This document shows positions 9,057 through 60,124 of a stretch of DNA of 64,000 nucleotides, piece by piece (the first letter of the stretch is position 1; the number at the start of each line of letters is the position of its first letter). The position numbers were made by a program, and so were the translations under genes. This stretch comes from Nitrosopumilus sp. (GTDB taxonomy: Archaea > Thermoproteota > Nitrososphaeria > Nitrososphaerales > Nitrosopumilaceae): the NCBI GenBank assembly GCA_965207445.1, contig CBDBLX010000002.1, forward strand, positions 1,495,849-1,559,848, read 5' to 3'. Under the pieces are notes generated by a model that did not search any database, had not been told where the DNA came from, and saw only the letters and a program-made list of their open reading frames with translations.

Positions 9057-9279
9057 TAATTTGTATGTGCAAGTCTACAAAATAAAGTAATTATTTGCAC
9101 ATTATAATATCACATAACAACTATTACAAACATAACTAATAAAAATAAACATATAAAATAATATTAGTTAAATATTTTATAAAATATATTGAGCGTTTTG
9201 ATGTAACACATCTAACCTAAATGTTCAAAAAAGAAATAAAAAATTACACATATTATATCAAATTGTATAAATGCATATC

Positions 9280-9420
9280 TTAACTGTCTATAAGCCAAGA
9301 TATTGTATTTAGATAAGTTTGATCATCCATACCACCTTCTGCCCAAAAACTTGCTACTCTAATCTAGTCTGGTATCTCTGCATATGCAATTCCTGTAGTT
9401 GACAGACGTGTAATTATCAT
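9280..9420 (-). pseudogene. Remnant of a thaumarchaeal secreted protein with an IPxW..A.WW..G.IDD-type motif
   Basis: Hand translation MIITRLSTTGIAYAEIPD*IRVASFWAEGGMDDQTYLNTISWLIDS; TAG sits at the expected Trp position. Confidence 0.55.
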
Positions 9421-9503
9421 AATACTTGTAAAAATTGTTATTGTTTGTTTATCCTTTATTACATAAGGGACAAATTTGATACTTTATGACTTTGATTTAC
9501 GTA

Positions 9504-21202: not shown

Positions 21203-21247
21203 GGAATTGAGTTTACATATATGTAATTATCCCTTGCGAATTTTCAA

Positions 21248-35500: not shown

Positions 35501-38500
35501 AGCAAGATATTTGCATCACAATCACCTCATGATCCTGCAGTACTTGAACTACCTATACCATCACTTCAAATAGAGGTTAATCCTAGCGGTATTTACGGGC
35601 CGCTTGCACTTAACAAGGAAATTCAAATAGAGGCACAGCTTCCACCAGACAAGCCAACCAATCTAATAGCTAATCCATTAAACAAACAAGTTATTCTGAA
35701 TTGGTCTGCACCGACTTATGTTTCTCCTCCTGTCATAGATTATACTGTACAGTATCGTGTCAATGACGGCGTAACGCATGCATGGGAGACATTCCCAGAC
35801 ACGTTTTTGAACACAACTGGTATAGTCACAGGTTTAACCAACGGAGTGCAGTATCAATTCAGGGTAAATGCCACAAATGCGGTAGGGACAGGACCTGCTT
35901 CTGATGTCGTCCCTGCCACACCACGTACAGTTCCAGAGGCTCCGTCTAATCTGACTGCCGATCCGGGCAACGAGCAAGTGGATTTATCATGGACTGCGCC
36001 TCATGATGGCGGCTCTCCGATAACAGGTTATATCGTAGAGTACACATCAAACAACGGCGCTTCGTGGAGTGAGTTTGCAGACATCACTGACACATATGCC
36101 AACGTCACGGGCCTAACAAACGGACAACAGTATCATTTCAGAGTAAATGCCACAAATGCGGTAGGGACAGGACCTGCTTCTGACATCGTCCCCGCCACTC
36201 CCGTGACTCTCCCAGGGGCTCCAGAAAATCTGATAGCGACAGTAAACGGCACCACCATAGAACTCACATGGGATCCGCCTGCAAACGATGGAGGCGCTAC
36301 AATTACATCATATACTGTCCAACAAAGTACGGATGGTATAACGTGGGATACGGTACCTGATTTGAACAGTGCAGATACCAAAGCAACTACACCCAACGTG
36401 CTACTTAACACAAAATACAGTTTCCGCGTGAATGCCACAAATGCGGTAGGGACAGGGCCTGCTTCTGACATTGTTATGTCACTTATTGACACTAAACCCT
36501 CCGTCAGGCTTTCAACGAATATTACAGGTCCCACATCTTTGGACTCTATACCTTTTACGATCTCCGTTAATGAACGCGTAACTGGGCTCGAAGCATCTGA
36601 GATTTCTACATCTTCTGGCATCGTAAAGAATCTTGTTTTAGGAAACTATACATTTGGTGGCGCGGGCAACGGCACCAGTGAGTTTAGTAGTCCGCTTGGA
36701 ATTGCCACAAATGGTACAGGATATGTGTATGTTGCCGATACATTTAACCACCGTGTCCAGATATTTGATGCAGCAGGCGCGTATTTGGGTGAGTTTGGTA
36801 GACAGGGTAGTAGTGACGGAGAGTTTAGCATCCCGTTTGGAATTGCCATAAATGGTACAGGACACGTGTATGTTACTGATTCAGGTAACCGCCGTGTCCA
36901 GATATTTGATGCAGTGGGCACGTACTTGGGTGAGTTTGGTAGACAGGGTAGTGGTAACGGAGAGTTTGTCAGCCCGTATGGAATTGCCATAAATGGTACA
37001 GGACACGTGTATGTTACTGACAATTTTAACCACCGCGTCCAGATATTTGATGCAGTGGGCGCGTACTTGGGTGAGTTTGGTAGTGGGGGCAGCGGCAACA
37101 GTGAGTTTAGTAGACCGAATGGAATTGCCATAAATGGTACAGGATATGTGTATGTTACTGATTCAGGTAACCACCGTGTCCAGATATTTGATGCAGCAGG
37201 CGCGTATTTGGGCGAGTTTGGTAGACATGGCAGCGACAACAGTGAGTTTAGAAACCCGAATGGAATTGCCATAAATGATGCAGGGCATGTGTATGTTGCC
37301 GATACAGTTAACGACCGTGTCCAGATATTTGATACAGCAGGCATGTATCTTGACAAGATCGTCAGTTCAGATTTGACACTTGATCTTGACAATCCAATTG
37401 CTGTAGCGATTCGTGGCACGTCTTTGTATATCATAGACTCGGATACTAGTCACGTTCATGTATTGCGCAACTTTTACACCTTTGAAGTACACAATCCTTC
37501 CGTTGGAACTCTTCAGGTCCATATACCTGCAGATGTGGTACAGGATGATGCAGGCAACAATAATACCGCATCCAATATAATCCGAATTTCAATCGTTACG
37601 GTTCCAGGTGTTCCGCAGAATTTGGTAGCTACGCCAGGTGATGCTACAGTCACCCTCGCATGGGACCAGCCTAGAAATGACGGTGGTGCTGCTATAATAT
37701 CATATATTGTACAGCAGAGTATTGACGGTGTTATATGGACTCTGGTGCCTGATTCAGATAATAGTGATACGACTGCAACAGCTATCGAATTGACAAATGA
37801 CAGTCAGTATCAATTTCGTGTTAATGCCACAAACATTGCCGGAACAGGTCCTGCATCTATCATCTCTGCCACCCCTACGGACACCACTCTGCCATCTGTT
37901 ACCATCAACGACGTAACAATGGAAGCAACAGGTGTCACAACTAGTGTTGATATTGGCTATCCAGAGATAACTGATGCATCAGGTGGCCCATATACCGTAA
38001 CATATAACGCAACTGGAAATGTACAGACCACATCAGGTGCTAGTAATGTGACCGTATCACTTGGTGTAGGTATGATTATAGTGCAGTGGAACGTCACGGA
38101 TCCCTCAAATAACATAGGTACTGCGCTCCAAATGGTGGACGTCACAGACACCACCCCGCCTACTATCACCCTGATTGGCTCGGCTTCTGTCACCGTGACG
38201 TTGGGCGGCACATATGAGGAACAAGGAGCAGTCTGCTCTGATATTGTGGATGCTGACAAGTCAGCCACTGTAGGGGGCGACACAGTTAACACTGACTCGA
38301 CTGGTCAATACACTGTGCAGTATACCTGTACAGATACAGCAGGTAATGAGGCCACACCTGTAGATCGTACCGTGACTGTCCATGATCCAACAGCTCCTTC
38401 TATTTCCATCAACGACATAACAATGGAAGCAACAGGTGCCACAACTAGTGTTGATATTGGCTATCCAGAGATAACTGATGCATCAGGTGGTCCATATACC

Positions 38501-41500
38501 GTAACATATAACGCAACTGGAAGTGTACAGACCACATCAGGTACTAGTAATGTGACCGTATCACTTGGTGTTGGTAGGATTATAGTGCAGTGGAGCGTCA
38601 CGGATCCCTCAGATAACACAGGTACTACGCTCCAAATGGTGGACGTCACAGACACCACCCCGCCTACTATCACCCTGAGTGGCTCGGCTTCTGTCACCGT
38701 GACGCTGGGCGACACATATGAAGAAGATGGAGCAGTCTGCTCTGATATTGTGGATGCTGACAAGTCAGCCACTGTAGGGGGCGACACAGTTAACACTGAC
38801 TCGACTGGTCAATACACTGTGCAGTATACCTGTACAGATACAGCAGGTAATGAGGCCACACCTGTAGATCGTACCGTGACTGTCCATGATCCGACATCTC
38901 CGTCTATTTCCATCAACGACGTAACAATGGAAGCAACAGGTGTCACAACTAGTGTTGATATTGGCTATCCAGAGATAACTGATGCATCAGGTGGTCCATA
39001 TACCGTAACATATAACGCAACTGGAAGTGTACAGACCACATCAGGTACTAGTAATGTGACCGTATCACTTGGTGTTGGTAGGATTATAGTGCAGTGGAGC
39101 GTCACGGATCCCTCAAATAATATGGGCACTGCGCTCCAAATGGTGGACGTCACAGACACCACCCCGCCTACTATCACCCTGACTGGGTCGGCTTCTGTCA
39201 CCGTGACGTTGGGCGGCACATATGAAGAAGATGGAGCAGTCTGCTCTGATATTGTGGATGCGGACAAGTCAGCCACTGTAGGGGGCGACACAGTTAACAC
39301 TGACTCGACTGGTCAATACACTGTGCAGTATACCTGTACAGATACAGCAGGTAATGAGGCCACACCTGTAGATCGTACCGTGACTGTCCATGATCCAACA
39401 GTTCCGTCTGTTGTTATAGACGACGTAACAATGGAAGCAACAGGTGCCACAACTAGTGTTGATATTGGCTATCCAGAGATAACTGATGCATCAGGTGGTC
39501 CATATACCGTAACATATAACGCAACTGGAAATGTACAGACCACATCAGGTACTAGTAATGTGACCGTATCACTTGGTGTGGGTATGATTATAGTGCAGTG
39601 GAGCGTCACGGATCCCTCAAATAATATGGGCACTGCGCTCCAAATGGTGGACGTCACAGACACCACCCCGCCTACTATCACCCTGACTGGGTCGGCTTCT
39701 GTCACCGTGACGCTGGGCGACACATATGAAGAAGAGGGGGCAGTCTGCTCTGATATTGTGGATGCGGACAAGTCAGCCACTGTAGGGGGCGACACAGTTA
39801 ACACTGACTCGACTGGTCAATACACTGTGCAGTATACCTGTACAGATACAGCAGGTAATGAGGCCACACCTGTAGATCGTACCGTGACCGTCCATGATCC
39901 AACAGTTCCGTCTGTTGTTATAGACGACGTAACAATGGAAGCAACAGGTGCCACAACTAGTGTTGATATTGGCTATCCAGAGATAACTGATGCATCAGGT
40001 GGTCCATATACCGTAACATATAACGCAACTGGAAATGTACAGACCACATCAGGTACTAGTAATGTGACCGTATCACTTGGTGTTGGTAGGATTATAGTGC
40101 AGTGGAGCGTCACGGATCCCTCAAATAACATAGGTACTGCGCTCCAAATGGTGGACGTCACAGACACCACCCCGCCTACTATCACCCTGACTGGGTCGGC
40201 TTCTGTCACCGTGACGCTGGGCGGCACATATGAAGAAGATGGAGCAATCTGCTCTGATATTGTGGATGCGGACAAGTCAGCCACTGTAGGGGGCGACACA
40301 GTTAACACTGACTCGACTGGTCAATACACTGTGCAGTATACCTGTACAGATACAGCAGGTAATGAGGCCACACCTGTAGATCGTACCGTGATTGTCCATA
40401 TGGCGTCTGACACCACCTCACCGTCTATTTCCATCAACGACGTAACAATGGAAGCAACAGGTGCCACAACTAGTGTTGATATTGGCTATCCAGAGATAAC
40501 TGATGCATCAGGTGGTCCATATACCGTAACATATAACGCAACTGGAAATGTACAGACCACATCAGGTACTAGTAATGTGACCGTATCACTTGGTGTTGGT
40601 AGGATTATAGTGCAGTGGAACGTCACGGATCCCTCAAATAATATGGGCACTGCGCTCCAAATGGTGGACGTCACAGACACCACCCCGCCTACTATTACCC
40701 TGATTGGCTCGGCTTCTGTCACCGTGACGTTGGGCAGCACATATGAGGAACAGGGAGCCGTCTGTACAGACTTGGTGGACGGTAATATTGTTCCAGTTCA
40801 ACTAGGTACGGTAGACGCATTTACCCTAGGTCAGTACACCATACAGTACACCTGCACAGATACAGCAGGTAATGAGGCCACACCTGTAGATCGTACCGTG
40901 ATTGTCCATATGGCGTCTGACACCACCTCACCGTCTATTTCCATCGACGACGTAACAATGGAAGCAACAGGTGCCACAACTAGTGTTGATATTGGCTATC
41001 CAGAGATAACTGATGCATCAGGTGGTCCATATACCATAACATATAACGCAACTGGAAATGTACAGACCACATCAGGTACTAGTAATGTGACCGTATCACT
41101 TGGTGTCGGTAGGATTATAGTGCAGTGGAACGTCACGGATCCCTCAAATAATATGGGCACTGCGCTCCAAATGGTGGACGTCACAGACACCACCCCGCCT
41201 ACTATTACCCTGACTGGCTCTTCTTCTGTCACAATAACCATAGGAAACTCATATGTGGATGCAGGAGCCGTCTGTACAGACTTGGTGGACGGCAATATTG
41301 TTCCAGTTCAACTAGGTACGGTAGACGCATTTACCCTAGGTCAGTACACCATACAGTACACATGCACAGACGCAGCAGGTAATGAGGCCACACCTATAAG
41401 CCGCACCGTGACCGTCCATATGGCGTCTGACACCACCTCACCGTCTATTTCCATCAACGACGTAACAATGGAAGCAACAGGTGCCACAACTAGTGTTGAT

Positions 41501-44017
41501 ATTGGCTATCCAGAGATAACTGATGCATCAGGTGGTCCATATACCGTAACATATAACGCAACTGGAAATGTACAGACCACATCAGGTACTAGTAATGTGA
41601 CCGTATCACTTGGTGTTGGTAGGATTATAGTGCAGTGGAACGTCACGGATCCCTCAAATAATATGGGCACTGCGCTCCAAATGGTGGACGTCACAGACAC
41701 CACCCCGCCTACTATTACCCTGACTGGCTCTTCTTCTGTCACAATAACCATAGGAAACTCATATGTGGATGCAGGAGCCGTCTGTACAGACTTGGTGGAC
41801 GGTAATATTGTTCCAGTTCAACTAGGTACGGTAGACGCATTTACCCTAGGTCAGTACACCATACAGTACACCTGCACAGATACAGCAGGTAACGAGGCCA
41901 CACCTATAAGCCGCACCGTGACCGTCCATATGGCGTCTGACACCACCTCACCGTCTATTTCCATCAACGACGTAACAATGGAAGCAACAGGTGCCACAAC
42001 TAGTGTTGATATTGGCTATCCAGAGATAACTGATGCATCAGGTGGTCCATATACCGTAACATATAACGCAACTGGAAATGTACAGACCACATCAGGTACT
42101 AGTAATGTGACCGTATCACTTGGTGTTGGTAGGATTATAGTGCAGTGGAACGTCACGGATCCCTCAAATAATATGGGCACTGCGCTCCAAATGGTGGACG
42201 TCACAGACACCACCCCGCCTACTATTACCCTGATTGGCTCGGCTTCTGTCACCGTGACGTTGGGCAGCACATATGAGGAACAGGGAGCCGTCTGTACAGA
42301 CTTGGTGGACGGTAATATTGTTCCAGTTCAACTAGGTACGGTAGACGCATTTACCCTAGGCCAGTACACCATACAGTACACATGCACAGACGCAGCAGGT
42401 AATGAGGCCACACCTGTAGATCGTACCGTGATTGTCCATATGGCGTCTGACACCACCTCACCGTCTATTTCCATCAACGACGTAACAATGGAAGCAACAG
42501 GTGCCACAACTAGTGTTGATATTGGCTATCCAGAGATAACTGATGCATCAGGTGGTCCATATACCGTAACATATAACGCAACTGGAAATGTACAGACCAC
42601 ATCAGGTACTAGTAATGTGACCGTATCACTTGGTGTTGGTAGGATTATAGTGCAGTGGAACGTCACGGATCCCTCAAATAACATAGGTACTGCGCTCCAA
42701 ATGGTGGACGTCACAGACACCACCCCGCCTACTATCACCCTGATTGGTTCGGCTTCTGTCACCGTGACGTTGGGCAGCACATATGAGGAACAGGGAGCCG
42801 TCTGTACAGACTTGGTGGACGGTAATATTGTTCCAGTTCAACTAGGTACGGTAGACGCATTTACCCTAGGTCAGTACACCATACAGTACACATGCACAGA
42901 CGCAGCAGGTAATGAGGCCACACCTGTAGATCGTACCGTGATTGTCCATATGGCGTCCGACACCACCTCACCGTCTATTTCCATCGACGACGTAACAATG
43001 GAAGCAACAGGTGCCACAACTAGTGTTGATATTGGCTATCCAGAGATAACTGATGCATCAGGTGGTCCATATACCGTAACATATAACGCAACTGGAAATG
43101 TACAGACCACATCAGGTACTAGTAATGTGACCGTATCACTTGGTGTTGGTAGGATTATAGTGCAGTGGAACGTCACGGATCCCTCAAATAACATAGGTAC
43201 TGCGCTCCAAATGGTGGACGTCACAGACACCACCCCGCCTACTATCACCCTGATTGGTTCGGCTTCTGTCACCGTGACGTTGGGCAGCACATATGAGGAA
43301 CAGGGAGCCGTCTGTACAGACTTGGTGGACGGTAATATTGTTCCAGTTCAACTAGGTACGGTAGACGCATTTACCCTAGGCCAGTACACCATACAGTACA
43401 CATGCACAGACGCAGCAGGTAATGAGGCCACACCTGTAGATCGTACCGTGATTGTCCATATGGCGTCTGACACCACCTCACCGTCTATTTCCATCGACGA
43501 CGTAACAATGGAAGCAACAGGTGCCACAACTAGTGTTGATATTGGCTATCCAGAGATAACTGATGCATCAGGTGGTCCATATACCGTAACATATAACGCA
43601 ACTGGAAATGTACAGACCACATCAGGTACTAGTAATGTGACCGTATCACTTGGTGTTGGTAGGATTATAGTGCAGTGGAACGTCACGGATCCCTCAAATA
43701 ACATAGGTACTGCGCTCCAAATGGTGGACGTCACAGACACCACCCCGCCTACTATCACCCTGATTGGTTCGGCTTCTGTCACCGTGACGTTGGGCAGCAC
43801 ATATGAGGAACAGGGAGCCGTCTGTACAGACTTGGTGGACGGTAATATTGTTCCAGTTCAACTAGGTACGGTAGACGCATTTACCCTAGGTCAGTACACC
43901 ATACAGTACACATGCACAGACGCAGCAGGTAATGAGGCCACACCTATAAGCCGCACCGTGACTGTCCATATGGCGTCCGACACCACCTCACTGTCTAATT
44001 ATTCACAATGCAGATAG
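32540..44017 (+). CDS. 3825-aa secreted adhesin-like protein: signal/TM, FG-GAP repeats, Ig-like, 3x FN3, Ig with inserted NHL repeats, FN3, 12x (HYR-like + DUF5011-like)
   Basis: Hydrophobic N-terminus; FGxSVxxxGDxxGDGxPDIAVGA repeats (about 32840-35230); FN3 W..P...Y...YxFRVNA.N..G.G; NHL P.GIA.NG.G.VYV.D..N.RVQIFD (about 36640-37470); 504/513/510-bp repeats (about 37880-43990). Confidence 0.9.
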   Translation: MVRINACVWRKITPNYNKPHHYIALLFIIVLCSSLYFTSTCFAPSDECKIMHVMDKFVWMDSVLKSTIHDIPYAYGQTPDFSDKTGFVYVTDTIEINHLNVSGGLSDSDAFGRSVTSAGDLDGDGVPDIIVGANQPNVNRNEASGDVYVVFMNSDGTVRNARIMEQLSTNTHTVNAIHRGTSVASLGDLNGDDIPDIAIGASGDINTTDDHGAIYILLMNRDGTTDRIIPITHNTPNGPTLDTGDFFGNSIALVDDLDGNNVPDIAVGAIGDDAGGDSRGAIHILLMNSDHTIRNTIEINSTTPRGPILNDKGFFGQSVASTDLNNDGTPDIIAGTYLDSNNGYSRGAVHIMFMNSDGTIQNTVRIDESTTNGPRLSNEAHFGVSVASAGDLDNDGVDDVLVGSYENRSNTGSVYIMLMNPDGSIKSTSKINSSTSGGPVLSAGDRLGVSVTPIGDLNGDGMPDIVAGAYWDDAGGTNRGAVHLMLLDPIRPVPNYKVHDTAKITTQAVQGSGYSNQFHFGTVSSIGDIDSDGTPDIAVGARGDVEGGANRGAVYILLMNNDGTVKSATAINDATPRGPTLANHDLFGTSVTSIGDIDEDGTPDIAVGADGDDSVGVDRGAVYILLMNNDGTVKNTVKINDATPRGPTLSNGDGFGTSVTSIGDIDEDGTPDIAVGADDDNGSGGSLRGAVHILFMSNDGTVKRTVEINSATPRGPTLSNSDTFGASIASIGDINGDGTPDIAVGADGDNSNRGAVHILFMNNDGTVKSTVEINSTTPRGPTLSLGDRFGASIASIGDINGDGTPDIAVGARDDSKIKAQQGAFYILLLNDDGAVKRSVKIDSNTTNIPDMSIGDRFGSSIASVGDINGDGTPDIAVGADQDDSGGSNRGAVYIIFLDKTVVIQGVTSSADDGRHTQGPIDIDVLFSEPVGVVGSPYLTLETGRIDRNAVYVSGNNTTVLTFRYTIQKQDTTLDLNYLSKSSLSLNNSKIFASQSPHDPAVLELPIPSLQIEVNPSGIYGPLALNKEIQIEAQLPPDKPTNLIANPLNKQVILNWSAPTYVSPPVIDYTVQYRVNDGVTHAWETFPDTFLNTTGIVTGLTNGVQYQFRVNATNAVGTGPASDVVPATPRTVPEAPSNLTADPGNEQVDLSWTAPHDGGSPITGYIVEYTSNNGASWSEFADITDTYANVTGLTNGQQYHFRVNATNAVGTGPASDIVPATPVTLPGAPENLIATVNGTTIELTWDPPANDGGATITSYTVQQSTDGITWDTVPDLNSADTKATTPNVLLNTKYSFRVNATNAVGTGPASDIVMSLIDTKPSVRLSTNITGPTSLDSIPFTISVNERVTGLEASEISTSSGIVKNLVLGNYTFGGAGNGTSEFSSPLGIATNGTGYVYVADTFNHRVQIFDAAGAYLGEFGRQGSSDGEFSIPFGIAINGTGHVYVTDSGNRRVQIFDAVGTYLGEFGRQGSGNGEFVSPYGIAINGTGHVYVTDNFNHRVQIFDAVGAYLGEFGSGGSGNSEFSRPNGIAINGTGYVYVTDSGNHRVQIFDAAGAYLGEFGRHGSDNSEFRNPNGIAINDAGHVYVADTVNDRVQIFDTAGMYLDKIVSSDLTLDLDNPIAVAIRGTSLYIIDSDTSHVHVLRNFYTFEVHNPSVGTLQVHIPADVVQDDAGNNNTASNIIRISIVTVPGVPQNLVATPGDATVTLAWDQPRNDGGAAIISYIVQQSIDGVIWTLVPDSDNSDTTATAIELTNDSQYQFRVNATNIAGTGPASIISATPTDTTLPSVTINDVTMEATGVTTSVDIGYPEITDASGGPYTVTYNATGNVQTTSGASNVTVSLGVGMIIVQWNVTDPSNNIGTALQMVDVTDTTPPTITLIGSASVTVTLGGTYEEQGAVCSDIVDADKSATVGGDTVNTDSTGQYTVQYTCTDTAGNEATPVDRTVTVHDPTAPSISINDITMEATGATTSVDIGYPEITDASGGPYTVTYNATGSVQTTSGTSNVTVSLGVGRIIVQWSVTDPSDNTGTTLQMVDVTDTTPPTITLSGSASVTVTLGDTYEEDGAVCSDIVDADKSATVGGDTVNTDSTGQYTVQYTCTDTAGNEATPVDRTVTVHDPTSPSISINDVTMEATGVTTSVDIGYPEITDASGGPYTVTYNATGSVQTTSGTSNVTVSLGVGRIIVQWSVTDPSNNMGTALQMVDVTDTTPPTITLTGSASVTVTLGGTYEEDGAVCSDIVDADKSATVGGDTVNTDSTGQYTVQYTCTDTAGNEATPVDRTVTVHDPTVPSVVIDDVTMEATGATTSVDIGYPEITDASGGPYTVTYNATGNVQTTSGTSNVTVSLGVGMIIVQWSVTDPSNNMGTALQMVDVTDTTPPTITLTGSASVTVTLGDTYEEEGAVCSDIVDADKSATVGGDTVNTDSTGQYTVQYTCTDTAGNEATPVDRTVTVHDPTVPSVVIDDVTMEATGATTSVDIGYPEITDASGGPYTVTYNATGNVQTTSGTSNVTVSLGVGRIIVQWSVTDPSNNIGTALQMVDVTDTTPPTITLTGSASVTVTLGGTYEEDGAICSDIVDADKSATVGGDTVNTDSTGQYTVQYTCTDTAGNEATPVDRTVIVHMASDTTSPSISINDVTMEATGATTSVDIGYPEITDASGGPYTVTYNATGNVQTTSGTSNVTVSLGVGRIIVQWNVTDPSNNMGTALQMVDVTDTTPPTITLIGSASVTVTLGSTYEEQGAVCTDLVDGNIVPVQLGTVDAFTLGQYTIQYTCTDTAGNEATPVDRTVIVHMASDTTSPSISIDDVTMEATGATTSVDIGYPEITDASGGPYTITYNATGNVQTTSGTSNVTVSLGVGRIIVQWNVTDPSNNMGTALQMVDVTDTTPPTITLTGSSSVTITIGNSYVDAGAVCTDLVDGNIVPVQLGTVDAFTLGQYTIQYTCTDAAGNEATPISRTVTVHMASDTTSPSISINDVTMEATGATTSVDIGYPEITDASGGPYTVTYNATGNVQTTSGTSNVTVSLGVGRIIVQWNVTDPSNNMGTALQMVDVTDTTPPTITLTGSSSVTITIGNSYVDAGAVCTDLVDGNIVPVQLGTVDAFTLGQYTIQYTCTDTAGNEATPISRTVTVHMASDTTSPSISINDVTMEATGATTSVDIGYPEITDASGGPYTVTYNATGNVQTTSGTSNVTVSLGVGRIIVQWNVTDPSNNMGTALQMVDVTDTTPPTITLIGSASVTVTLGSTYEEQGAVCTDLVDGNIVPVQLGTVDAFTLGQYTIQYTCTDAAGNEATPVDRTVIVHMASDTTSPSISINDVTMEATGATTSVDIGYPEITDASGGPYTVTYNATGNVQTTSGTSNVTVSLGVGRIIVQWNVTDPSNNIGTALQMVDVTDTTPPTITLIGSASVTVTLGSTYEEQGAVCTDLVDGNIVPVQLGTVDAFTLGQYTIQYTCTDAAGNEATPVDRTVIVHMASDTTSPSISIDDVTMEATGATTSVDIGYPEITDASGGPYTVTYNATGNVQTTSGTSNVTVSLGVGRIIVQWNVTDPSNNIGTALQMVDVTDTTPPTITLIGSASVTVTLGSTYEEQGAVCTDLVDGNIVPVQLGTVDAFTLGQYTIQYTCTDAAGNEATPVDRTVIVHMASDTTSPSISIDDVTMEATGATTSVDIGYPEITDASGGPYTVTYNATGNVQTTSGTSNVTVSLGVGRIIVQWNVTDPSNNIGTALQMVDVTDTTPPTITLIGSASVTVTLGSTYEEQGAVCTDLVDGNIVPVQLGTVDAFTLGQYTIQYTCTDAAGNEATPISRTVTVHMASDTTSLSNYSQCR

Positions 44018-51142: not shown

Positions 51143-51178
51143 ATTTGTAAAAACAGATAGTAGCTTTTGTATGTTTTG

Positions 51179-51284
51179 CATAATAGTTTCATTAAAGATC
51201 CGATAGTTTTCTAATATTTTGTATTCATAATATGTACTCAACTTCGAGATGAATATCAATCAAAATATCGGATCTTTAATCATA
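51179..51284. mobile_element. About 90-100-bp MITE-like repeat upstream of pyrG
   Basis: attaaagatccgata...tatcggatctttaat; second copy at 30301-30404. Confidence 0.75.
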
Positions 51285-51315
51285 TCAGTATGCATCAAGG
51301 CATGCTAAAGTTGTC

Positions 51316-51396
51316 GTAACCGTTCAACTCATTCTCAAGTTTAGACACAGATTCATCGACTAACTTTTAGTGCAGGCACGGGGGTTGAACGGTTAC
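51316..51396. mobile_element. About 80-bp GTAAC-ended MITE (reverse orientation); an extra solo TIR lies at 51496-51511
   Basis: gtaaccgttcaac...gttgaacggttac. Confidence 0.8.
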
Positions 51397-51879
51397 GACC
51401 TTGCGATCTGATCTAGAGTACCAGTACACGTAATGTGTGGGCAGATAATCAAGTCAAAGCCGCATCTGTGCTACTCTGGGCAAGGGGGGTGTTGGGGGGT
51501 TGAACGGTTACCGCTAAACTGGGAATTATATACTTGATTCACAAATATATGCCTAGTTAAATGCCTGCCTAGGCCGCATGCAGCCATACACAGCCATACA
51601 CAGCCATGCAGCACGCCAGATCCTTAAACCAAGAATGTGTGGATGGCAATACCAATAACAATGCCCGCGATTCAGACATTTTTGATGGATGAAGGCGGGG
51701 GTGAGCGCCAAGTGGATGTGTGTTGTAGCATATGTGAATGTAATATTATACACTTGTAACTTATCATGGATAGCAATCATATCATGTTCCGGGTAGTCCC
51801 CATCCAGCACCCAATCCGTAGCCTATGGCGCCTGATATGAGACTGCAAAAGGCTGCAAAGCTAAGGCTTACTGATATTC

Positions 51880-54800
51880 TCATTTCTTGGTTTGCTCCGT
51901 GGAAAACTTCTCAAGTCCCGTCTTTGCAGGTTTCCAATTTTTGGGCTCAAACTCCTTTGGTAGGTTGGCTATGAGGCGGTCTGACTCCACTCCAACATAC
52001 ACCAACCGCTCTATGAGGGCAATGATATCGATGTCTTTACCGTCAAGTGTTTTTGTAGCGTCGTTTATGATGTCACTGTCCTTGTCAGTGCGAACCTTAT
52101 ATCGGTCGACTGCCCATGCAAGAGGAGTTCGTCCATTTACCTTGTAGTCGATTTTAGGTATGTTGTCAAAGACCACAATGCCGTTTATTTTCAATGTGAT
52201 GAAACCATCTGTTTGCTTTTTGCCCTTAACATCACTTGCTTTTTTCGTGTCAAACGCCATCTTTTCATATTTACCAAATGGAGCCTTTGGCTTGCCCAGT
52301 TTGTATCGTTTGCAGGTTTCCCAAAATAGATGAAGGTCGGCAAGCTGTTTGCCTGTTTTTGAGAATGCCCAAAAGTCGGGCGCCATGGGAATGTGGGGTA
52401 ATTCACGTGAAAGATTGTTTGCATATTTTTTTCGATAGTCAGGGTGATGCAACAAACCATAGACATAGTAGAATATATCTTCCTTGGATATCGTCTTGTC
52501 GCCGTAGTGTTCACAATATTCTTCTTGTGTATAATCTGTGATATTATCTTGTCTACTGTTATTGTAATACGTGTATAATGGAAAACATTGTGTTGGTGAT
52601 GGACTCATTATATTTAGATCTGGAACACTATCCACAATATACGTGCCAAATATTTTCATGTCTGGGCGAAATCCACAAACAATCAATGAATTTTTAGAGT
52701 CGTTTTTTGGAAAGAAATTTAAAATTAATGCCTGCATCGCATTAAATACATTATCAAAATACATATTTTGTTTAAAAAATGGTCTATATAATGAAATTCT
52801 GATCTTATTTTTTGAAAATTTCTGCATGCCTAATCGTTTTAAACGAATTAAGGACTCACGATCCCATTTAGCTTTTTTAGGATTTGTTATTGGGTTATCT
52901 AAATTTTGAGAGTTACAATAACTAATATGACGTTCCATATTTTTAACCAACTCGTCTTTAGATGAATTATAGATCCACGCATCACGACCTGTTGTCACAC
53001 CTCCAGAATACATTTTAAATACTGCATTCCCCTTACCTTTCTTTGCATCCTTACTTCCGATCGGTAGATATTCAGAAAATTTACTACTTCTTTGCCCCAG
53101 CCAGTCGTGATGTTTGTCAGGCTTTATGATCTTCCAATCCAGTGATTTAATTGAACCTATCGTCTTGATGGTATTTAATTTGGTCTCGCGGTCGTGATAA
53201 TCGCCAATGTCGCGATAATATATGGTGCCGGGTGTCGTTTTTTTGGGATTTTTTACAAGAATGATAATGGCAACGGGTGCCCTGGAACCTGATCCAAATA
53301 TTTTCCCACCTTCCTTTCTGGATATTTCATCCCGTGTTCTTTGATTTCCCCTTAGGTCGAATATCCATACGTCTGTAAACTCTTGCTGTAGACAGGCGCG
53401 TATACCTGCCGCTACATCAGTTCTGATAAAACTAGCGTTTGTTACGAATCCAATAATACCTGATTTTCCTATGCGGTCCGAAGCCCAACGGATGGAACGA
53501 ATGTAAGAATCGTATAAAAGACCAACATGAGTTGCATTGGTATTGATAATTTTCGTCTTTTTTAAATAGGTGTCTTTGATTCTTTTGTCCATATCGTCAT
53601 ATTGGATATTCTGATTTTGGTCGTTGTAGTTGGACTGTCCTGCCGAGTACGGTGGATTTCCCACTATGACGGTGATGTTTGTCTGGCGTTGCCGTCTGAT
53701 GCGCCTTTTTACATTTGCCATGATGTCTCCAGTATGTTCATCTAATTTACCGGGGCTGAACGTGTCAGTCAGTGAGATGCCTTCAAACTGTTCAAACTTT
53801 CCTGCGCGTTGCGCGTACACAGACTCACAGTTTACGAGTGCTATGTAATAAGCCAGTAGGACAATCTCATTTGCAAATAATTCGTTATGATACTTGTACA
53901 CCAGGTCCTCTTTCCTGATCATACCAAGGTCTTCGGACATCAGTCTTGTAAGAAACGTGCCAGCCCCTGTAAACGGATCTATAATGTTGACATTCTTGTC
54001 AGTCACGCCGCGCCCAAAGTTCTCGCGTGATACGTGGTCGACGGACCTGAGGATAAAGTCGACTACCTCCTGTGGTGTGTAGACGATACCCAGACGTTCG
54101 GACATCTTCGGGAACGCCTGTTTGAAGAATGTCCCATACAGTTCACTTATGACGGGCTGCCTCGCGTCGTGCGTGTCAAGCTTTGAGACGCGATTCTCAA
54201 TACTCTTGTAAAAACTCTCTAATTTATCCATCTCCACATCAAGTCCATGCAGGAATAGTTCGTCGATTATGGCGTCCAGTGTGACGGAGACCGGATTCTT
54301 TTTTGCAAATTCATCAGTGTCAAATATTGCGTTGAATATCCTCCGCGTCACCATGTGTTGAGCCAACATGTCTATGCCGTCCTGTTCTGTCACCGAGTCA
54401 CTCATTATCTCGCGTAATCCGGACATGTAAGAGTCGAACATCTTTCTGGCGCCACTGCCGCCGCTGCTGGACTTCTTTCCATCTCCTATCACAGTCAGAA
54501 TGCGCTCCTGCAATCTTGCAACCACATCTGCAACATCCTTGGACCAATACTCAAAGTAACGGCGGTCTCCAACCTCATCCACTATTTTTGAATAGATCAG
54601 ATTAGATGGGACGTCAAGTTCACCAATAGGTATCGTATCGCCGCTAGGGTCGTGTTGCCGTATTCTGCCATCGCGGTCAACACCGAATATACTTACACGC
54701 TTTGGCAGTTCTTTTCTGAGATCTGCCGTATTACATTCGATACTCATTCGTTCATCATGTGAGCGCAGCGCCTGCAGTATCTTCCAGACTGTTTCAAACA

Positions 54801-56646
54801 CTTTGTTATTGTCCAATATCTGGTTTGCGTCTTGGTTGGGCGGTACTCCTATGGGTAGTATCACATACCCAGTTGATTTTTTCTCCGATTTTCGCATTAC
54901 GCGCCCTACTGCTTGCACAATTTCCACCATTGATTCCTTTGGATTCATAAATGCAATTGAGTCAAGTGCAGGTACATCAACCCCTTCTGAGAGACATCTG
55001 GCATTTGAGAGTATGCGGCATTCATCGGGGGCAACAGAGGAGCTTTCCCGTAACCATTGTATTGCATCGGCCCTTTCTGTAGCATTTTGTGTTCCATCCA
55101 CATGACGTGAGTCACAACTAAATCGTTTTCCATCAGTTTCACGTGTGAGTTTATCAAACGTCCGTGCAAATGTCTTTGAGTCCACCACTCTGTTAGTATA
55201 CACAATACACGTCTGCATGGCCCGCATGTCTTCATTATCACTGTCTGGATTCTGAAGCGCTTTGTACAATCCCAGCATTCTTGCTGCATCAGTCAGCTTC
55301 AAATCACCGGCTTCTGTAGTTACATCTACCAAATTTTGCAGGTATTTTGCCCCGTATCTTTCATCAATAGCCAATACAGCTACCTTGTAATCGGAAAGTT
55401 GTTTGGCATCAATTGCATCTGAAAAACTCAATTCATGCAACGTTTTTCCATATACGGCCGTATCATCCATTGAATACAATGGAATGCCAAGGTTGGATGT
55501 CTTTGTCTTTATTTTGGCTTGGAATATTTTTGGAGTCGCCGTCATGTATATTCTCTTGTTAGCATCAATTGACGTGTGTACAAGTTGTGCGCCCCATTCA
55601 TTTCCCTTGTCAGCTCCAGTAGTACGATGCGCCTCGTCACATAATACAAGATCAAACGGCCTGCCTACCTCTTTCTGTGCGTCCACTACGGCTTTCATAC
55701 TCTGATATGTCGAAAACACAACAGTCATCTTTTTTTTGTCTGTTTTTTTTAATGCAGATGCTATCCGTTTTGGGTTTGTAGTCACACGAATCTCCATCTC
55801 AATTATTGGTATGTCAGCAGCCTCATCACCATGACTTACTTTGGGATCTGAACATACACCCACATACCCATGTGGGATTGTCTTTTGTTCGGACCAATAT
55901 CTAATGGATTGATGCATCAGTGAGATTGAAGGTACTGCATATAGTACCAGTCCGCCAACACCAACCATCGATTCTGCAATCCTGAGAGATACTAGTGTCT
56001 TACCTGTCCCACATGCCATTATCAGTTTACCGCGGTCTGTTTCTGCAAGACCACTGGATACATCCACAAGTGCCTTTTTCTGATAATCGCGCAATTTGTA
56101 TGGATCGCGCCGTGTTATTTTAGTAAGTCCGGCAGCCAAGTCGGGCCAATTAACATTGCTCGTTGACAATGATTTGAAATTCAGTGCTGTGCAACCATGT
56201 CCTTTGAGTGCATCTTCTACATTCTTTCCATAACTACTACCCGTGTATACTAACATCATATGTGAGAATGTACTACGTGAACCTGCTTCTAGAAAGCTAT
56301 CTATGTGCTTTTTTTGAATAGTGGTTTTATCGTAAAATTTACACTGGATGGCACACAATGAACCATCACTTTTTTCCTTTGCTACAAGATCCGCACCAAT
56401 ATCGTGACTCTTGTTACGTTCTGGATATTCATCCCAGAGCCAAACTGATTCAAAACGATCTTTGTATATTGGATCCACACTTAGAAATGACTTGACAACT
56501 TTTTCAAACAATTTGCCTTTTGTGTGTCCATCACCATCTGCTCTCTGACGTAATTGTTCTAACATCTTGTTAAATCCAGTATTGTTTCCTGTAACAGTAG
56601 CGTGCGGTTTATTGCCACCGTTTGGTTTGCCGGCTGGAGGAGTCAT
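51880..56646 (-). CDS. Type ISP (LlaGI/LlaBIII-like) single-polypeptide restriction-modification enzyme
   Basis: Mrr-like nuclease (LFE...DIGADLV...AIQCKFY), SF2 helicase (MACGTGKT, DEAH, SEGVDVP, QAVGRVMR), MTase (DPFTGAGTF, GNPPY), C-terminal TRD. Start is ATG 56646 or 56661. Confidence 0.92.
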   Translation of the reverse strand: MTPPAGKPNGGNKPHATVTGNNTGFNKMLEQLRQRADGDGHTKGKLFEKVVKSFLSVDPIYKDRFESVWLWDEYPERNKSHDIGADLVAKEKSDGSLCAIQCKFYDKTTIQKKHIDSFLEAGSRSTFSHMMLVYTGSSYGKNVEDALKGHGCTALNFKSLSTSNVNWPDLAAGLTKITRRDPYKLRDYQKKALVDVSSGLAETDRGKLIMACGTGKTLVSLRIAESMVGVGGLVLYAVPSISLMHQSIRYWSEQKTIPHGYVGVCSDPKVSHGDEAADIPIIEMEIRVTTNPKRIASALKKTDKKKMTVVFSTYQSMKAVVDAQKEVGRPFDLVLCDEAHRTTGADKGNEWGAQLVHTSIDANKRIYMTATPKIFQAKIKTKTSNLGIPLYSMDDTAVYGKTLHELSFSDAIDAKQLSDYKVAVLAIDERYGAKYLQNLVDVTTEAGDLKLTDAARMLGLYKALQNPDSDNEDMRAMQTCIVYTNRVVDSKTFARTFDKLTRETDGKRFSCDSRHVDGTQNATERADAIQWLRESSSVAPDECRILSNARCLSEGVDVPALDSIAFMNPKESMVEIVQAVGRVMRKSEKKSTGYVILPIGVPPNQDANQILDNNKVFETVWKILQALRSHDERMSIECNTADLRKELPKRVSIFGVDRDGRIRQHDPSGDTIPIGELDVPSNLIYSKIVDEVGDRRYFEYWSKDVADVVARLQERILTVIGDGKKSSSGGSGARKMFDSYMSGLREIMSDSVTEQDGIDMLAQHMVTRRIFNAIFDTDEFAKKNPVSVTLDAIIDELFLHGLDVEMDKLESFYKSIENRVSKLDTHDARQPVISELYGTFFKQAFPKMSERLGIVYTPQEVVDFILRSVDHVSRENFGRGVTDKNVNIIDPFTGAGTFLTRLMSEDLGMIRKEDLVYKYHNELFANEIVLLAYYIALVNCESVYAQRAGKFEQFEGISLTDTFSPGKLDEHTGDIMANVKRRIRRQRQTNITVIVGNPPYSAGQSNYNDQNQNIQYDDMDKRIKDTYLKKTKIINTNATHVGLLYDSYIRSIRWASDRIGKSGIIGFVTNASFIRTDVAAGIRACLQQEFTDVWIFDLRGNQRTRDEISRKEGGKIFGSGSRAPVAIIILVKNPKKTTPGTIYYRDIGDYHDRETKLNTIKTIGSIKSLDWKIIKPDKHHDWLGQRSSKFSEYLPIGSKDAKKGKGNAVFKMYSGGVTTGRDAWIYNSSKDELVKNMERHISYCNSQNLDNPITNPKKAKWDRESLIRLKRLGMQKFSKNKIRISLYRPFFKQNMYFDNVFNAMQALILNFFPKNDSKNSLIVCGFRPDMKIFGTYIVDSVPDLNIMSPSPTQCFPLYTYYNNSRQDNITDYTQEEYCEHYGDKTISKEDIFYYVYGLLHHPDYRKKYANNLSRELPHIPMAPDFWAFSKTGKQLADLHLFWETCKRYKLGKPKAPFGKYEKMAFDTKKASDVKGKKQTDGFITLKINGIVVFDNIPKIDYKVNGRTPLAWAVDRYKVRTDKDSDIINDATKTLDGKDIDIIALIERLVYVGVESDRLIANLPKEFEPKNWKPAKTGLEKFSTEQTKK

Positions 56647-56774
56647 GGTGAAACACCCCATTTAAATAACTGACTACAAAAATTAAGATTACATATAAAA
56701 CACCATACCTCAAAAATAGAGTATGGTGATCGCGTCCCACATCTAATTAATCGCGGTGTGTCCCACACTGCACT

Positions 56775-56962
56775 GCACTGCACGGTGTGTGCACTGCACG
56801 GTGTGTGCACTGCACGGTGTGTGCACTGCACGGTGTGTGCACTGCACGGTGTGTGCACTGCACGGTGTGTGCACTGCACGGTGTGTGCACTGCACGGTGT
56901 GTGCACTGCACGGTGTGTGCACTGCACGGTGTGTGCACTGCACGGTGTGTGCACTGCACGGT
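56775..56962. repeat. Perfect 16-bp tandem array (11 full units plus 12 bp)
   Basis: gcactgcacggtgtgt repeated; GTGCAC palindrome at each junction. Confidence 0.97.
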
Positions 56963-57045
56963 ACCTATGGAATCATATGGGTGCATGTCCGTCATTTTTA
57001 TCTGCTCATATAGAGTCATTGCATCTTCCTCCACACCCTAAACTC

Positions 57046-57642
57046 TCAATCATACTTCACAGAACCACCTGTCATATCTACAATAGCGCCTTCATCTAAC
57101 CTTATAACCCTAGCCTTCTCACCCTTTGCTATCTGCCGCTCCCCTATATGCGCTCTTACAATCATGCCCACTATTTCTGCAAACTCTAGCGCATGATTCA
57201 CAAAGGCCACTGACACATCTGAATACACACCCAAGGGAGGCGCACCCACGACTGCATACCTCTTGTCATCCGTTGGAACCCACGTCAAAAACTCTTGCCT
57301 CTTTACACTAGGATGCTGCGGCAGTATGTCCATTGCCACGGTATCTACAGGCAAAACCTCTAGGAACGAGCCGCGCCCTGCAGACGGATCGACATACATG
57401 TATGCGTCTGGGCTCAAGCCAACATCGCGCATTGCATCTTGCATTACCTGCACACACTTTTCAGCGGCCTCTTTAGTTGTAGTATACAAGTCCATACTCT
57501 TTGTCAGATTGATGTCAACAGACTTCCAAGCCTTGTCACGGTACCGGGTAGCATCCATTATCTCTTTCACAGATGGCCCATTTGCCATCTCATGCACCAG
57601 TGACCTGGCGGCATGATGCATATGTCCTGTTATATTGGACAT
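57046..57642 (-). CDS. SAM-dependent DNA methyltransferase-like protein with a variant catalytic motif
   Basis: DLYTT, YVDPSAGRGSFL (motif I), VVGAPPLG in place of GNPP(F/Y)G. Start overlaps the transposase end. Confidence 0.7.
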   Translation of the reverse strand: MSNITGHMHHAARSLVHEMANGPSVKEIMDATRYRDKAWKSVDINLTKSMDLYTTTKEAAEKCVQVMQDAMRDVGLSPDAYMYVDPSAGRGSFLEVLPVDTVAMDILPQHPSVKRQEFLTWVPTDDKRYAVVGAPPLGVYSDVSVAFVNHALEFAEIVGMIVRAHIGERQIAKGEKARVIRLDEGAIVDMTGGSVKYD

Positions 57643-58628
57643 CTCATTAACTCCTTTAGGCGATTCTCATATGCGCCATCCTTTATCAGAATCTTGTACA
57701 TTAGGCGCTTGTCTGACATGCCTTCAGTTATCTCAGACATTATTTCATGAGTGTCTTGTGGCCTTATGTTATGTCTGCCTGCAAACTCATTTACACATCT
57801 GTGCAAGTACTCTTTTGAGATGTGATGGAACGTTCCATCGTACCCGCGGCGCATCATTGACCAGAATGACTCCATACCGTTTGTATGTGCCTTGCCCCTT
57901 ACGTACTCACCTACTGAATGATTTACAGATTCGTGGTTTTCGAGTCCACCATAGGAGGAATTTTCATCCGTGTATTTTTTGGCCTCTGATTTAACGTTGT
58001 TTTCAATAAAGTCCTCTAGTCTGGCTTTGGTAGTTTCAGGCACGGGTTTTGCCACAATCGTTTTCGTTAAGCGGTCCCTTACGCCCACCACAGCAGTCTT
58101 CTTTCCCTTGCCTTTTTTATCTAGGTGCTTGTTTGATTCAGAGCCACCCAAATACACTTCGTCTATCTCCACCGGCCCCGCCATCTTTTCATCACCTGCC
58201 AAATTAACCCAGGCCTCTCGTATGCGCTGCACCATAAACCATGCAGACTTTTGAGTTATGTGTAGTTCGCGGTGCATCTTCATGCTGCTTATACCTTTGA
58301 GACTTGTAGCGAACATGTAGACTGCAATGGCCCATTTCTGATAACCAATTTTAGAACGGTGCATTACAGTGCCTGTTTTGACTGAAAAGTGACTGTGACA
58401 GATATTGCACCTATAAGGGACGCTTGGTTTACTTCCTTCATTGCCAGTGTCAGGGCTGCCACAATAGGGACACGGCCTTCCATCCTTCCACAAGATGGAT
58501 TCGAACCATTTCTCTGCCGCTTTATTGTCAGGGAGCATTTCAAAGAGTTCGATGATTGAGATGCCTACGCGATTACTCCTGCATGGGGCTGATGCACTCG
58601 TTAATGCCTCTTCGAGTATGTCTTTCAT
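57630..58628 (-). CDS. IS1595-family transposase
   Basis: CPYC...CNIC zinc ribbon, FSVKTGTVM, KGISS, VEIDEVYLGG, YTDE, VNHSVGEYV...HTNGMESFWS. Confidence 0.95.
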   Translation of the reverse strand: MKDILEEALTSASAPCRSNRVGISIIELFEMLPDNKAAEKWFESILWKDGRPCPYCGSPDTGNEGSKPSVPYRCNICHSHFSVKTGTVMHRSKIGYQKWAIAVYMFATSLKGISSMKMHRELHITQKSAWFMVQRIREAWVNLAGDEKMAGPVEIDEVYLGGSESNKHLDKKGKGKKTAVVGVRDRLTKTIVAKPVPETTKARLEDFIENNVKSEAKKYTDENSSYGGLENHESVNHSVGEYVRGKAHTNGMESFWSMMRRGYDGTFHHISKEYLHRCVNEFAGRHNIRPQDTHEIMSEITEGMSDKRLMYKILIKDGAYENRLKELMRCPI

Positions 58629-58772
58629 ACAGGGGGTTGAAAAGAGGGTTTAGTGAAAGTTTGTGCTGTTGTATATAGATTATATGTGATTATTTAGTTG
58701 TGAATCAAGTATATAATCCCCGCTAAACTCTCCAGTTTTCTTATATACGAGATGCACTAGTATTCTTAGATA

Positions 58773-59417
58773 ATGAAGGGTAACAACTTGGATGATTCAA
58801 CGTCCGCGTTCACCTGTTGTGACAAGGCGTTTGATGCAGGTGGCAAAACCGTGTCCGTGCGCGACGCACTTGTACTTATCAATCAGACACTGGATGAAAT
58901 ACTAATAGAACAAGAGGGGAGTGAGTTTGATGCCGATACTAGGTGGGCCTTGGCATGGTTTGAACAGTACAAATTTGACAACGGTGACTTTGGAGTGGCC
59001 GAAACACTTTCCAAGACGAAGAATACCAGTGTACATGGTATGGTGGATGCAGGTATATTGAAATCCAGTAGAGGTAAGGTGCGACTGTTCTCACCAAACG
59101 AGCTTCCAAAAGACTGGAATCTAAAAAAAGACAAAGGATTTACCATATGGGAAGCTACACATCATATGGTACGTTTGCTTGATACAAGTGAATTAGATGC
59201 AGCAAAAATCATGTCAAAACTTGGCTCTGCGGCCGAGCCTGCAAGAAAATTGACTTGTCGGTTTTATCATATATGTGAGCAAAAAAAATATACCAAAAAA
59301 GCACAAGACTATAATGCGTTGGTACAAAGCTGGCCAGAAATTTCTCATCTTGCAAAAAATGTTTTGGCGCTACGTACGTCACCGTCTAAAGGAATGAATT
59401 CATATGATGACCGCTGA
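58773..59417 (+). pseudogene. C-terminal remnant resembling a DUF1156-type adenine methylase
   Basis: SVRDALVLINQTLDE.L.EQEG.EFDADTRWALAWFEQY...AETLSK.KNTSV...YNALVQSWPEI. The catalytic N-terminal part is absent. Confidence 0.65.
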
Positions 59418-59721
59418 CATGCTTGACACCATGGTAAACCGTATTGTGAAACAATTAGATCCTGACGGTATCTTACTGTTTGGCTCTAGGGCGCGAGGCG
59501 ATGCAAGAGAGTGGAGTGATGTGGATCTTATGATTATAATGAATACGGTGTTGGACAAACGCAAAACAGCAATTGATACCCAGATGCTGTTAAAAGACCT
59601 GTTTATCAGTAAGGACATAATAGTAGTCACCAAGGACGAGATTCATCGTAAGCGTAACATAGTGGGCACTTTAATTCATGCGGCGCTTCAAGACGGGAGG
59701 ATGTTATATGAGCGATCATGA
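59404..59721 (+). CDS. Minimal nucleotidyltransferase (MNT antitoxin)
   Basis: LFGSRARGDA...SDVDLMII. Confidence 0.9.
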   Translation: MMTADMLDTMVNRIVKQLDPDGILLFGSRARGDAREWSDVDLMIIMNTVLDKRKTAIDTQMLLKDLFISKDIIVVTKDEIHRKRNIVGTLIHAALQDGRMLYERS

Positions 59722-60124
59722 TGCAGAGATACAGTCAGAGGCATTACAGTAGTTGAGATTTGCCAAGGACGATCATAACACGGCTATACAATTGATGAAC
59801 ATTGAATGTTTTTCACCACGACAAGTTTGTTGGCTCAGTCAACAGACTGCCGAAAAAGCACTCAAGGCTGCACTATTGTTAGATGCGGTCAAGTTTCCAC
59901 ACGTACACGACTTGAATATTCTAAGAGAACTACTTCCCAAGGGTTGGAATGTGTTGGACACGCACAGAGAACTATTCAATCTTACGGAATGGGCAGTGGA
60001 AGCACGTTATCCAGGTGACTGGCCGGAGCCTACAAACACAGATGCGAAATATGTAGAATCTACGGCACGTTTGATCTATGATTCTGTAGCCGTCGAGTTT
60101 AGACGTCGCGGCATACTTATTTGA
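59708..60124 (+). pseudogene. HEPN-domain toxin with an in-frame TAG at codon 15
   Basis: MSDHDAEIQSEALQ*LRFAKDD...QQTAEKALKA...HDL..L...EARYPG; overlaps the MNT end. Confidence 0.8.

Follow-up and report, generated by a model that had tools for sequence, protein, structure and literature searches.

Insertion sequences (ISs) of the IS1595 family are defined by a single transposase with a DDE_Tnp_IS1595 domain (PMC8101967), and IS1595 and IS66 are the families for which the category of transporter IS (tIS), an IS with passenger genes within its ends, was defined (10.1101/2021.05.26.445724). The tISs MTnSag1 and tISCpe8 of the IS1595 family have 25-bp ends and 8-bp target-site duplications (TSDs), and their passenger is a resistance gene (PMC5704250). 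The present analysis concerns a 64,000-nucleotide stretch of the ammonia-oxidising archaeon Nitrosopumilus sp. (assembly GCA_965207445.1, contig CBDBLX010000002.1, positions 1,495,849–1,559,848; hereafter the window), which lies on contig C2 of a 2.6-Mb genome assembled in two contigs and holds an element of the same plan, with one transposase, ends of about 25 bp, an 8-bp TSD, and passengers inside; unlike MTnSag1 and tISCpe8, it is archaeal, is 7.2 kb long, and carries as its passenger a 4.8-kb Type ISP restriction–modification (RM) gene. In its anatomy, the element is an intact tIS with Type ISP cargo and is predicted to transpose. The reading that we consider probable is that of an IS1595-family tIS with an intact transposase, whose passenger is an intact Type ISP gene that likely serves defence against foreign DNA and is predicted to be switched by a tandem repeat.

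COG3677 covers transposases of the IS1 and IS1595 types. RM units in which RM genes lie between inverted repeats, with an 8-bp TSD, were described by Furuta, Abe, and Kobayashi in 2010, and in the Neisseria unit among them the ends measure 26 bp, the RM gene is of Type IIG, and a transposase-like gene belongs to COG3677 (PMC2853133). As that unit is described in the text of the article, its transposase is likely inactive and its RM gene is truncated, whereas both are intact in the window element, which further has an enzyme of Type ISP and an archaeal host and belongs to a family whose cargo slot can be seen to be swappable. Transposons with RM cargo are already known, and the expectation of the initial annotation that this combination had not been described needs to be narrowed accordingly: an RM unit with terminal inverted repeats (TIRs), an 8-bp TSD, and a transposase-like gene is on record, while the literature searched contained neither the pairing of IS1595 with Type ISP nor this archaeal family or its likely switch. 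The search returned neither an IS1595 element with a Type ISP gene nor an archaeal RM-carrying tIS, although ISfinder, Siguier 2009, and the supplements of PMC2853133 may hold cases.

Sponge-associated thaumarchaea are enriched in RM systems, and some of them in transposases (PMC7848895), and the same literature search found no vehicle that links the two. The family described here is one, as one genome has four elements with RM cargo and the slot is swappable across relatives. With it, the cargo range of IS1595 comes to include an archaeal ATP-dependent enzyme of 4.8 kb, and the element is of value for its archaeal family and its testable switch.

Boundaries and Transposase of the Element

The unit of 7,201 bp spans positions 51521–58721 between its inverted ends. 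Its features, in window coordinates, are as follows.

51513–51520, no strand: left copy of the TSD, GCTAAACT, an exact match to 58722–58729
51521–51550, no strand: TIR at the cargo end (GGGAATTATATACTTGATTCACAA...), complementary at 27 of 30 bases to 58692–58721
51880–56646 (or to 56661), minus strand: Type ISP RM gene, identified with Pfam, 1588 amino acids from the ATG at 56646 or 1593 from the ATG at 56661
56643–56773, minus strand: 128-nt open frame between the array and a TGA overlapping the RM start (ATGA, 56646–56643), a candidate translational-coupling tail of predicted function
56747–57019, minus strand: leader open reading frame (ORF) through the array, with ATGs at 57019, 56995, and 56986 and its stop at 56749–56747
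56774–56962, no strand: perfect tandem array, 16 bp × 11.8 (TGCACTGCACGGTGTG), with a unit that is not a multiple of 3; candidate phase-variation tract
57046–57642, minus strand: methyltransferase-fold ORF of 198 amino acids, overlapping the transposase stop; PADLOC Type II methyltransferase profile, E 1e-19
57630–58628, minus strand: IS1595-family DDE transposase, 332 amino acids, uninterrupted; NF033547 and PF12762 above cut-off
58692–58721, no strand: TIR at the transposase end, pairing with 51521–51550
58722–58729, no strand: right copy of the TSD, running on into repeated upstream sequence with three genomic paralogues

The two TIR arms are identical at 23 of their first 24 bases and are bordered by an 8-bp TSD, as in IS1595-family elements; their pairing is the longest-scoring among 124 inverted pairs in 9 kb, and the first 22 nt of the cargo-end arm equal the end of a sister element in another thaumarchaeon (L018). 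The TIRs resemble the consensus of the ISNwi1 group, a candidate subgroup for the element. A scan of the whole 2.6-Mb genome with an end profile gave 17 end-like matches, among which an 8/8 TSD joins only the window pair. The coordinates and the scan bear out the initial annotation, which had described TIRs matching at 23 of 24 bp and an exact 8-bp TSD around genes that all lie on one strand.

The element could in principle be a small IS that came to lie beside an unrelated RM gene by chance or through an assembly artefact, and most Type ISP genes of the family do lie outside such elements. This explanation is scarcely credible, as the far end and the 8-bp TSD lie beyond the RM gene and form the sole such pair in the genome scan, the layout recurs in the sister elements L001 and L018, and both junctions are spanned by short-read contigs of one sample, which was sequenced in four runs and is probably the source. 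These contigs rule out a misjoin, and since they come from a single sample, they do not amount to independent support.

The transposase is the single DDE_Tnp_IS1595 protein of the element, with scores of 166 bits against NF033547 (cut-off 75) and 112 bits against PF12762 (cut-off 27). The N-terminal zinc ribbon, which is expected in all IS1595 groups except IS1016, is present as two CxxC pairs conserved with respect to five relatives, at a PF12760 score of 17 bits that lies under the cut-off of 25.4, and the IDE, TDE, and NG.ES blocks are conserved in the alignment with the same number of relatives. The RM gene and the methyltransferase-like ORF lie within the ends, as the passengers of a tIS do. 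As a first step of the proposed mechanism, the transposase would act on both ends, move the whole 7.2 kb, and duplicate 8 bp.

A different view would make the element an old immobile remnant, with ends and a TSD left by a past insertion and no further transposition. It occurs as a single copy, its methyltransferase-like ORF is shortened, decayed sisters also retain perfect TSDs, and about nine unpaired ends of its family lie elsewhere in the genome, none with a TSD-sharing partner within 40 kb. The full-length transposase with its conserved motifs, together with ends that are identical to each other at 23 of 24 bases and are held in common with a sister in another species, speaks against immobility, and we regard the remnant explanation as rather unlikely. 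The perfect TSD was also considered as proof of a recent insertion and was rejected: two sisters with wrecked transposases keep perfect 8-bp TSDs, so the TSD cannot date the event. A genome-wide search revealed neither a second copy nor an empty GCTAAACT site, and no empty-site joint was found in the contigs of the four runs, which drop rare variants, so that its absence is not evidenced. The 'recently inserted' element of the initial annotation is, on these grounds, a description that we do not retain.

The Type ISP Enzyme

Known Type ISP enzymes include LlaGI and LlaBIII (PDB 5ffj, 4xqk), and the window enzyme shares their six-domain order, their catalytic and base-flipping residues, and alignment over the full length (PMC3553950, PMC4872093). 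Its Pfam domains run Mrr_cat_2, ResIII, Helicase_C, ISP_coupler, N6_Mtase, and Type_ISP_C, placing an Mrr nuclease, a superfamily 2 helicase, a coupler, a gamma-class N6-adenine methyltransferase, and a target recognition domain (TRD) on one chain. Residues 30–1572 align to LlaBIII with 930 bits, and there is a full-length match to LlaGI as well. When checked with the residue numbers of PMC4872093, the nuclease D..D..QxK, the Walker A and B motifs (DEAH), the S-adenosylmethionine-binding motif I (DPFTGAG), NPPY, and the intercalating arginines are all intact in the alignment. LlaGI and LlaBIII are plasmid-borne in Lactococcus, whereas the window enzyme is chromosomal, lies inside a tIS, and has other recognition loops. 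The profiles and these alignments confirm what had been proposed at the outset, namely an archaeal IS1595 element with one transposase and a complete Type ISP gene.

A database allele that is 81% identical overall has a nearly identical N-terminal half and a strongly diverged methyltransferase–TRD part, LlaGI and LlaBIII differ from each other in a like manner (PMC3553950), and the sample also contains a roughly 95% variant of the N-terminal half of the window enzyme. Mapping by hand onto the recognition code of PMC4872093 assigns Q1118/K1131 to C at −1, N1368 to A at +3, and R1286 to G at +6, so that the predicted recognition site would tentatively read CTnA..G; the site is tentative because the code is not simple, as the authors of PMC4872093 themselves stress. 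By homology to LlaGI and LlaBIII, the enzyme would methylate one adenine of an asymmetric 6–7-bp site (tentatively the one above), translocate with ATP, and cut upon the collision of two enzymes arriving from unmodified head-to-head sites. For the described enzymes, cleavage requires two such sites, and translocation occurs at 10 nM enzyme whereas cleavage takes more than 100 nM (PMC3553950); by analogy, these thresholds would fit a low state in which DNA is marked and a high state in which it is restricted.

The same properties bear on the suggestion, made in the initial annotation, of an addiction unit, in which the RM enzyme would keep the transposon in place through the death of cells that had lost it. 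In favour of this, the cargo identified most often in the family is RM genes, and some Type II systems are known to exert post-segregational killing (PMC2853133). In a Type ISP enzyme, by contrast, cutting and marking reside on one chain and would decay together, cleavage needs two unmodified head-to-head sites (PMC3553950), and broken Type ISP paralogues or fragments persist at three other places in the same genome, so loss of function is tolerated. Selfish addiction is improbable on this evidence.

A further Type ISP paralogue of the same genome, 59% identical to the window enzyme, lies outside any IS1595 bracket (L002:5768–10713, about 1753767–1758712 of C2). It is split into two ORFs, and within its TRD a 12-bp repeat lies in frame and a segment of the recognition loop is duplicated. 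Since Type ISP loci lie mostly outside the transposon chassis and this paralogue is outside any element, the cargo slot behind the transposase is likely to have taken up its gene from a clade of Type ISP genes that these archaea already possess, which would be the second step of the mechanism.

Sister Elements and Exchange of Cargo

Three further elements of the same genome have related ends, broken transposases of the same family, and single-chain RM genes.

L001, 6.3 kb: 1643-amino-acid Type ISP enzyme, 36% identical to the window enzyme; 8-bp TSD, one end decayed
L007, 6.1 kb: 938-amino-acid Type IIG-like enzyme; 8-bp TSD; holds an IS630-type insertion
L006, 4.1 kb: 960-amino-acid Type IIG-like enzyme; no TSD

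L018, the closest sister, is identical to the window element at 22 of 22 end bases, has a transposase that is 76% identical and a copy of the 198-amino-acid ORF that is 56% identical, and occupies a different target site. Its cargo is a 1443-amino-acid RM protein that matches the window enzyme in its first 640 residues only. L018 also carries, at 7921–9477, a GHKL-ATPase gene in opposite orientation and, following the RM gene, an HNH fragment.

A transposase search of species genomes gave 45 loci. Inverted ends bracket 27 of them, with an 8/8 TSD at 22 of the 27, and these 27 represent 19 distinct elements; six of the 19 carry RM genes, as judged from a scan of 91 of the 187 ORFs in the bracketed elements, from which ORFs over the transposase and many shadow frames were omitted. 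The RM cargo of the six comprises an Mrr–helicase–methyltransferase protein, methyltransferase–HNH fusions (three elements), MT-A70 with BglII, and Mom with a PvuII-like enzyme. The element with MT-A70 and BglII occurs in six copies in one bacterial genome, at six sites with different TSDs, which establishes that the family moves with RM cargo. Within the Nitrosopumilaceae, the transposase is present in 20 of 401 genomes, and inverted ends flank 17 of 40 loci (in one case different ends, and in another probably a spurious pair), seven of the 17 carrying RM genes.

In the transposase tree, the 29 archaeal sequences cluster together (100/99), separate from those of bacteria, and the types of RM cargo are scattered within this cluster. 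The tree has 49 rows, consisting of the window and 48 of 51 loci after short alignments were dropped, and its midpoint root serves for drawing only. The slot behind the transposase is one in which RM modules are exchanged. The commonest cargo of the family, in archaea and bacteria, is an N6/N4 methyltransferase–HNH fusion (L021, L041, L047, L113, L114, L121, L125).

Of 17 candidates in viral contigs, none proved to be a phage carrier, none of 11 metagenome loci is bracketed (several are too short), and plasmids hold distant IS1595 transposases only, all below 60% identity. Two other mobile elements were noted in passing. At L152:5210–11153, a broken Type ISP gene lies between different inverted ends (GGCGCTGTTAAGAAGT...) with an 8-bp TSD and without a match to this transposase, and is likely a non-autonomous RM transposon. 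The window genome also has a second, cargo-less IS of 1.0 kb with GGTAATACGTAAC ends, 8-bp TSDs in two copies, and a distantly related transposase (about 26%), located on C2 at about 20900–21900, at 2180500–2181500, and at at least three further places.

The 198-Amino-Acid Methyltransferase-Like ORF

The ORF between the transposase and the array had been noted as a methyltransferase-like gene, and a methyltransferase-like ORF it is, but one that is probably catalytically dead. The S-adenosylmethionine-binding motif is kept in the ORF and in nine homologues, and the catalytic Asn is replaced by Ala in all of them, on which grounds the protein is probably inactive: where NPPF would stand, the ORF and eight of the nine homologues have APPL and the ninth has APPF, outside the pattern (D/N/S)PP(Y/F/W), and a longer relative (L056) has NPPF. 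The ORF is without a recognition domain and ends at a stop just short of the last conserved motif of its family. It gave no Pfam match, and a fold search returned nothing at E ≤ 0.001 and a weak match to M.TaqI at E 0.03. Its conservation among homologues is 39–61%, and strong matches occur in only 2 of the 401 Nitrosopumilaceae genomes, both behind this transposase. It is likely a dead passenger of the chassis.

The Repeat Array and a Candidate Switch

In Streptococcus gallolyticus pil1, a non-triplet repeat within an upstream leader ORF shifts the position of the leader stop (PMC3894217), and the same layout is seen before the window RM gene, where a perfect non-triplet repeat lies in a reading frame, as in phase-variable loci. 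For pil1, transcription attenuation of pilus genes is proven (PMC3894217), whereas coupling to the RM start at the archaeal locus is only predicted. At the present copy number, the leader stops about 100 nt before the RM start, and with one array unit more or two fewer it would end on the RM start codon. This suggests that the array is a phase-variation switch and that the sequenced allele is uncoupled, that is, low or off. Under the proposed mechanism, slippage of the repeat would set the leader frame, such that ribosomes would reach the RM start at every third copy number. The 16-bp unit is absent elsewhere on C2, and short-read contigs collapse the array.

Perfect arrays within 400 bp upstream precede 15 of 40 Type ISP genes, compared with 13 of 280 ORFs in their neighbourhood and 31 of 599 in the window genome itself, an enrichment of about eightfold over controls of about 5%. 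The units in front of Type ISP genes measure 7–19 bp, none a multiple of 3, and the copy numbers of sister loci differ (17.9 and 8.9; 17.4 and 10.4; 8.1 and 11). At 17 of 20 array loci, namely 16 of the 17 Type ISP loci and L018, a frame that leaves the array reaches its stop between −4 and +1 nt of an RM start; such a frame is missing from L006, L007, and L162. The leader is in the coupled frame at 4 of 17 loci, near the third expected of a random switch.

Two other roles for the array were considered. As a feature of the transposon it is weakened as a candidate, since arrays also stand upstream of Type ISP genes outside these elements; the array goes with the RM gene. As a set of recognition sites for the enzyme it was rejected, with CTnA..G absent from the array, and equal units occurring beside different recognition loops (L159/L160, L167/L168, L163/L169). 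The Type ISP genes L149, L152, L154, L172, and L176 lack an array, yet each is preceded by a long frame that abuts its start codon and may be the same leader with its repeat unexpanded.

Several observations weigh against the reading of the element as a mobile, repeat-switched defence transposon. On the side of mobility, no Type ISP locus of relatives lies inside this chassis (0 of 40, several with short flanks; Type ISP genes occur in 31 of the 401 Nitrosopumilaceae genomes), so Type ISP is a rare cargo; the three sisters in the same genome have broken transposases; and with the element in single copy and neither an empty site nor a second copy seen, its own movement with cargo is reasoned from its relatives. 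On the side of the switch, the array loci are kin and not independent, and the counts and the contrast of the frame test, which in its lenient form 39% of controls pass (160 of 408; 3,291 of 8,466), are therefore overstated. The Type IIG-like sisters L006 and L007 have arrays and fail the test, and the genome is repeat-rich, with 809 TRF arrays, 17 of them with a period of 10–30 and at least 8 copies. The main counter-argument is a candidate TATA-like box, TTTTATAT, between the array and the RM start and about 35–50 nt before the start codons, which implies that the RM gene might have its own transcript.

These points on the array would suit a simpler account in which transposon and cargo are the same, the array is the product of neutral slippage, and the RM gene is read from its own promoter with no switch; the nine closest Type ISP relatives (L148–L156) are likewise without an array. 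Neutral slippage fits less well with the enrichment before Type ISP genes, which involves many unrelated non-triplet units, with the frame that abuts the start at all Type ISP array loci except one, or with the window frame itself, which stays open for 128 nt and ends in the ATGA overlap. We hold the absence of a switch to be a possibility of some substance, albeit a doubtful one. The preferred reading remains that of a tIS whose Type ISP passenger is under the control of the repeat.

If the repeat gates translation, it would offer a testable explanation of how a transposon can bring a lethal nuclease into a genome not yet methylated, and an archaeal defence gene would be subject to phase variation driven by a repeat. 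The long reads from which such genomes are assembled often record methylation as well, which makes the switch testable. A more far-reaching proposal, which we put forward as unlikely in its entirety, is that the element is a mobile, phase-variable archaeal restriction cassette: it would bring in a chromosome-cutting enzyme whose safety is on, with the leader uncoupled in two of three phases, a new host cell would obtain enzyme enough for methylation only, slippage would flip a subpopulation to full restriction, and an archaeal IS1595 clade would shuffle RM modules through one slot, producing switchable, phasevarion-like methylomes of symbiotic ammonia oxidisers.

Insertion Site and Host Genome

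The left flank of the element consists of stacked miniature repeats that occur in tens to more than 100 copies in the genome. A repeat of the 118-bp type (51177–51294, about 60 copies) is followed by one of an 81–87-bp type with GTAACCGTTCAAC ends (51316–51396, more than 100 copies) and by a composite extension repeat (51397–51511, about 10 copies), and the transposon end lies 1 bp from one miniature repeat. In the right flank, a remnant of an HmaB-like adenine methylase gene and then an MNT–HEPN toxin–antitoxin-like pair occupy positions 58773–60124; for this three-part cassette, about six paralogous copies or fragments exist genome-wide. The paralogues of the right flank hold similar sequence at the position of the TSD, so the 8-mer is part of the target.

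Among 24 genomes of the genus, the matches are nearly all to pyrG. Relatives have trpA within 32–1,052 bp of pyrG at six of nine loci, the other three being without it (two at contig ends), and an RM gene at none of the nine. The RM gene standing at this locus in relatives without TIRs or a transposase, which had been named at the outset as the finding that would speak against a transposon, was thus not encountered at these loci.

The host would be a sponge symbiont, a lifestyle inferred from the fact that most related records come from taxa typical of sponge microbiomes. Elsewhere in the window, large surface-type proteins of 1408 and 3825 amino acids, with Ig-like, FG-GAP, fibronectin III, NHL, and HYR repeats, are encoded in GC-richer DNA (35–4261 and 32540–44017). 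A Dam-like methyltransferase of the D12 class lies at 12206–13069, an IS66 transposase at 16110–17744, and a DDE_Tnp_1 transposase at 27468–28580. Between 46896 and 63884, housekeeping proteins including CTP synthase carry long Asn, Ser, or Asp/His low-complexity insertions; the others are proteins that we take to be a NAD kinase-like protein, TrpA, and a TrpC-like protein.

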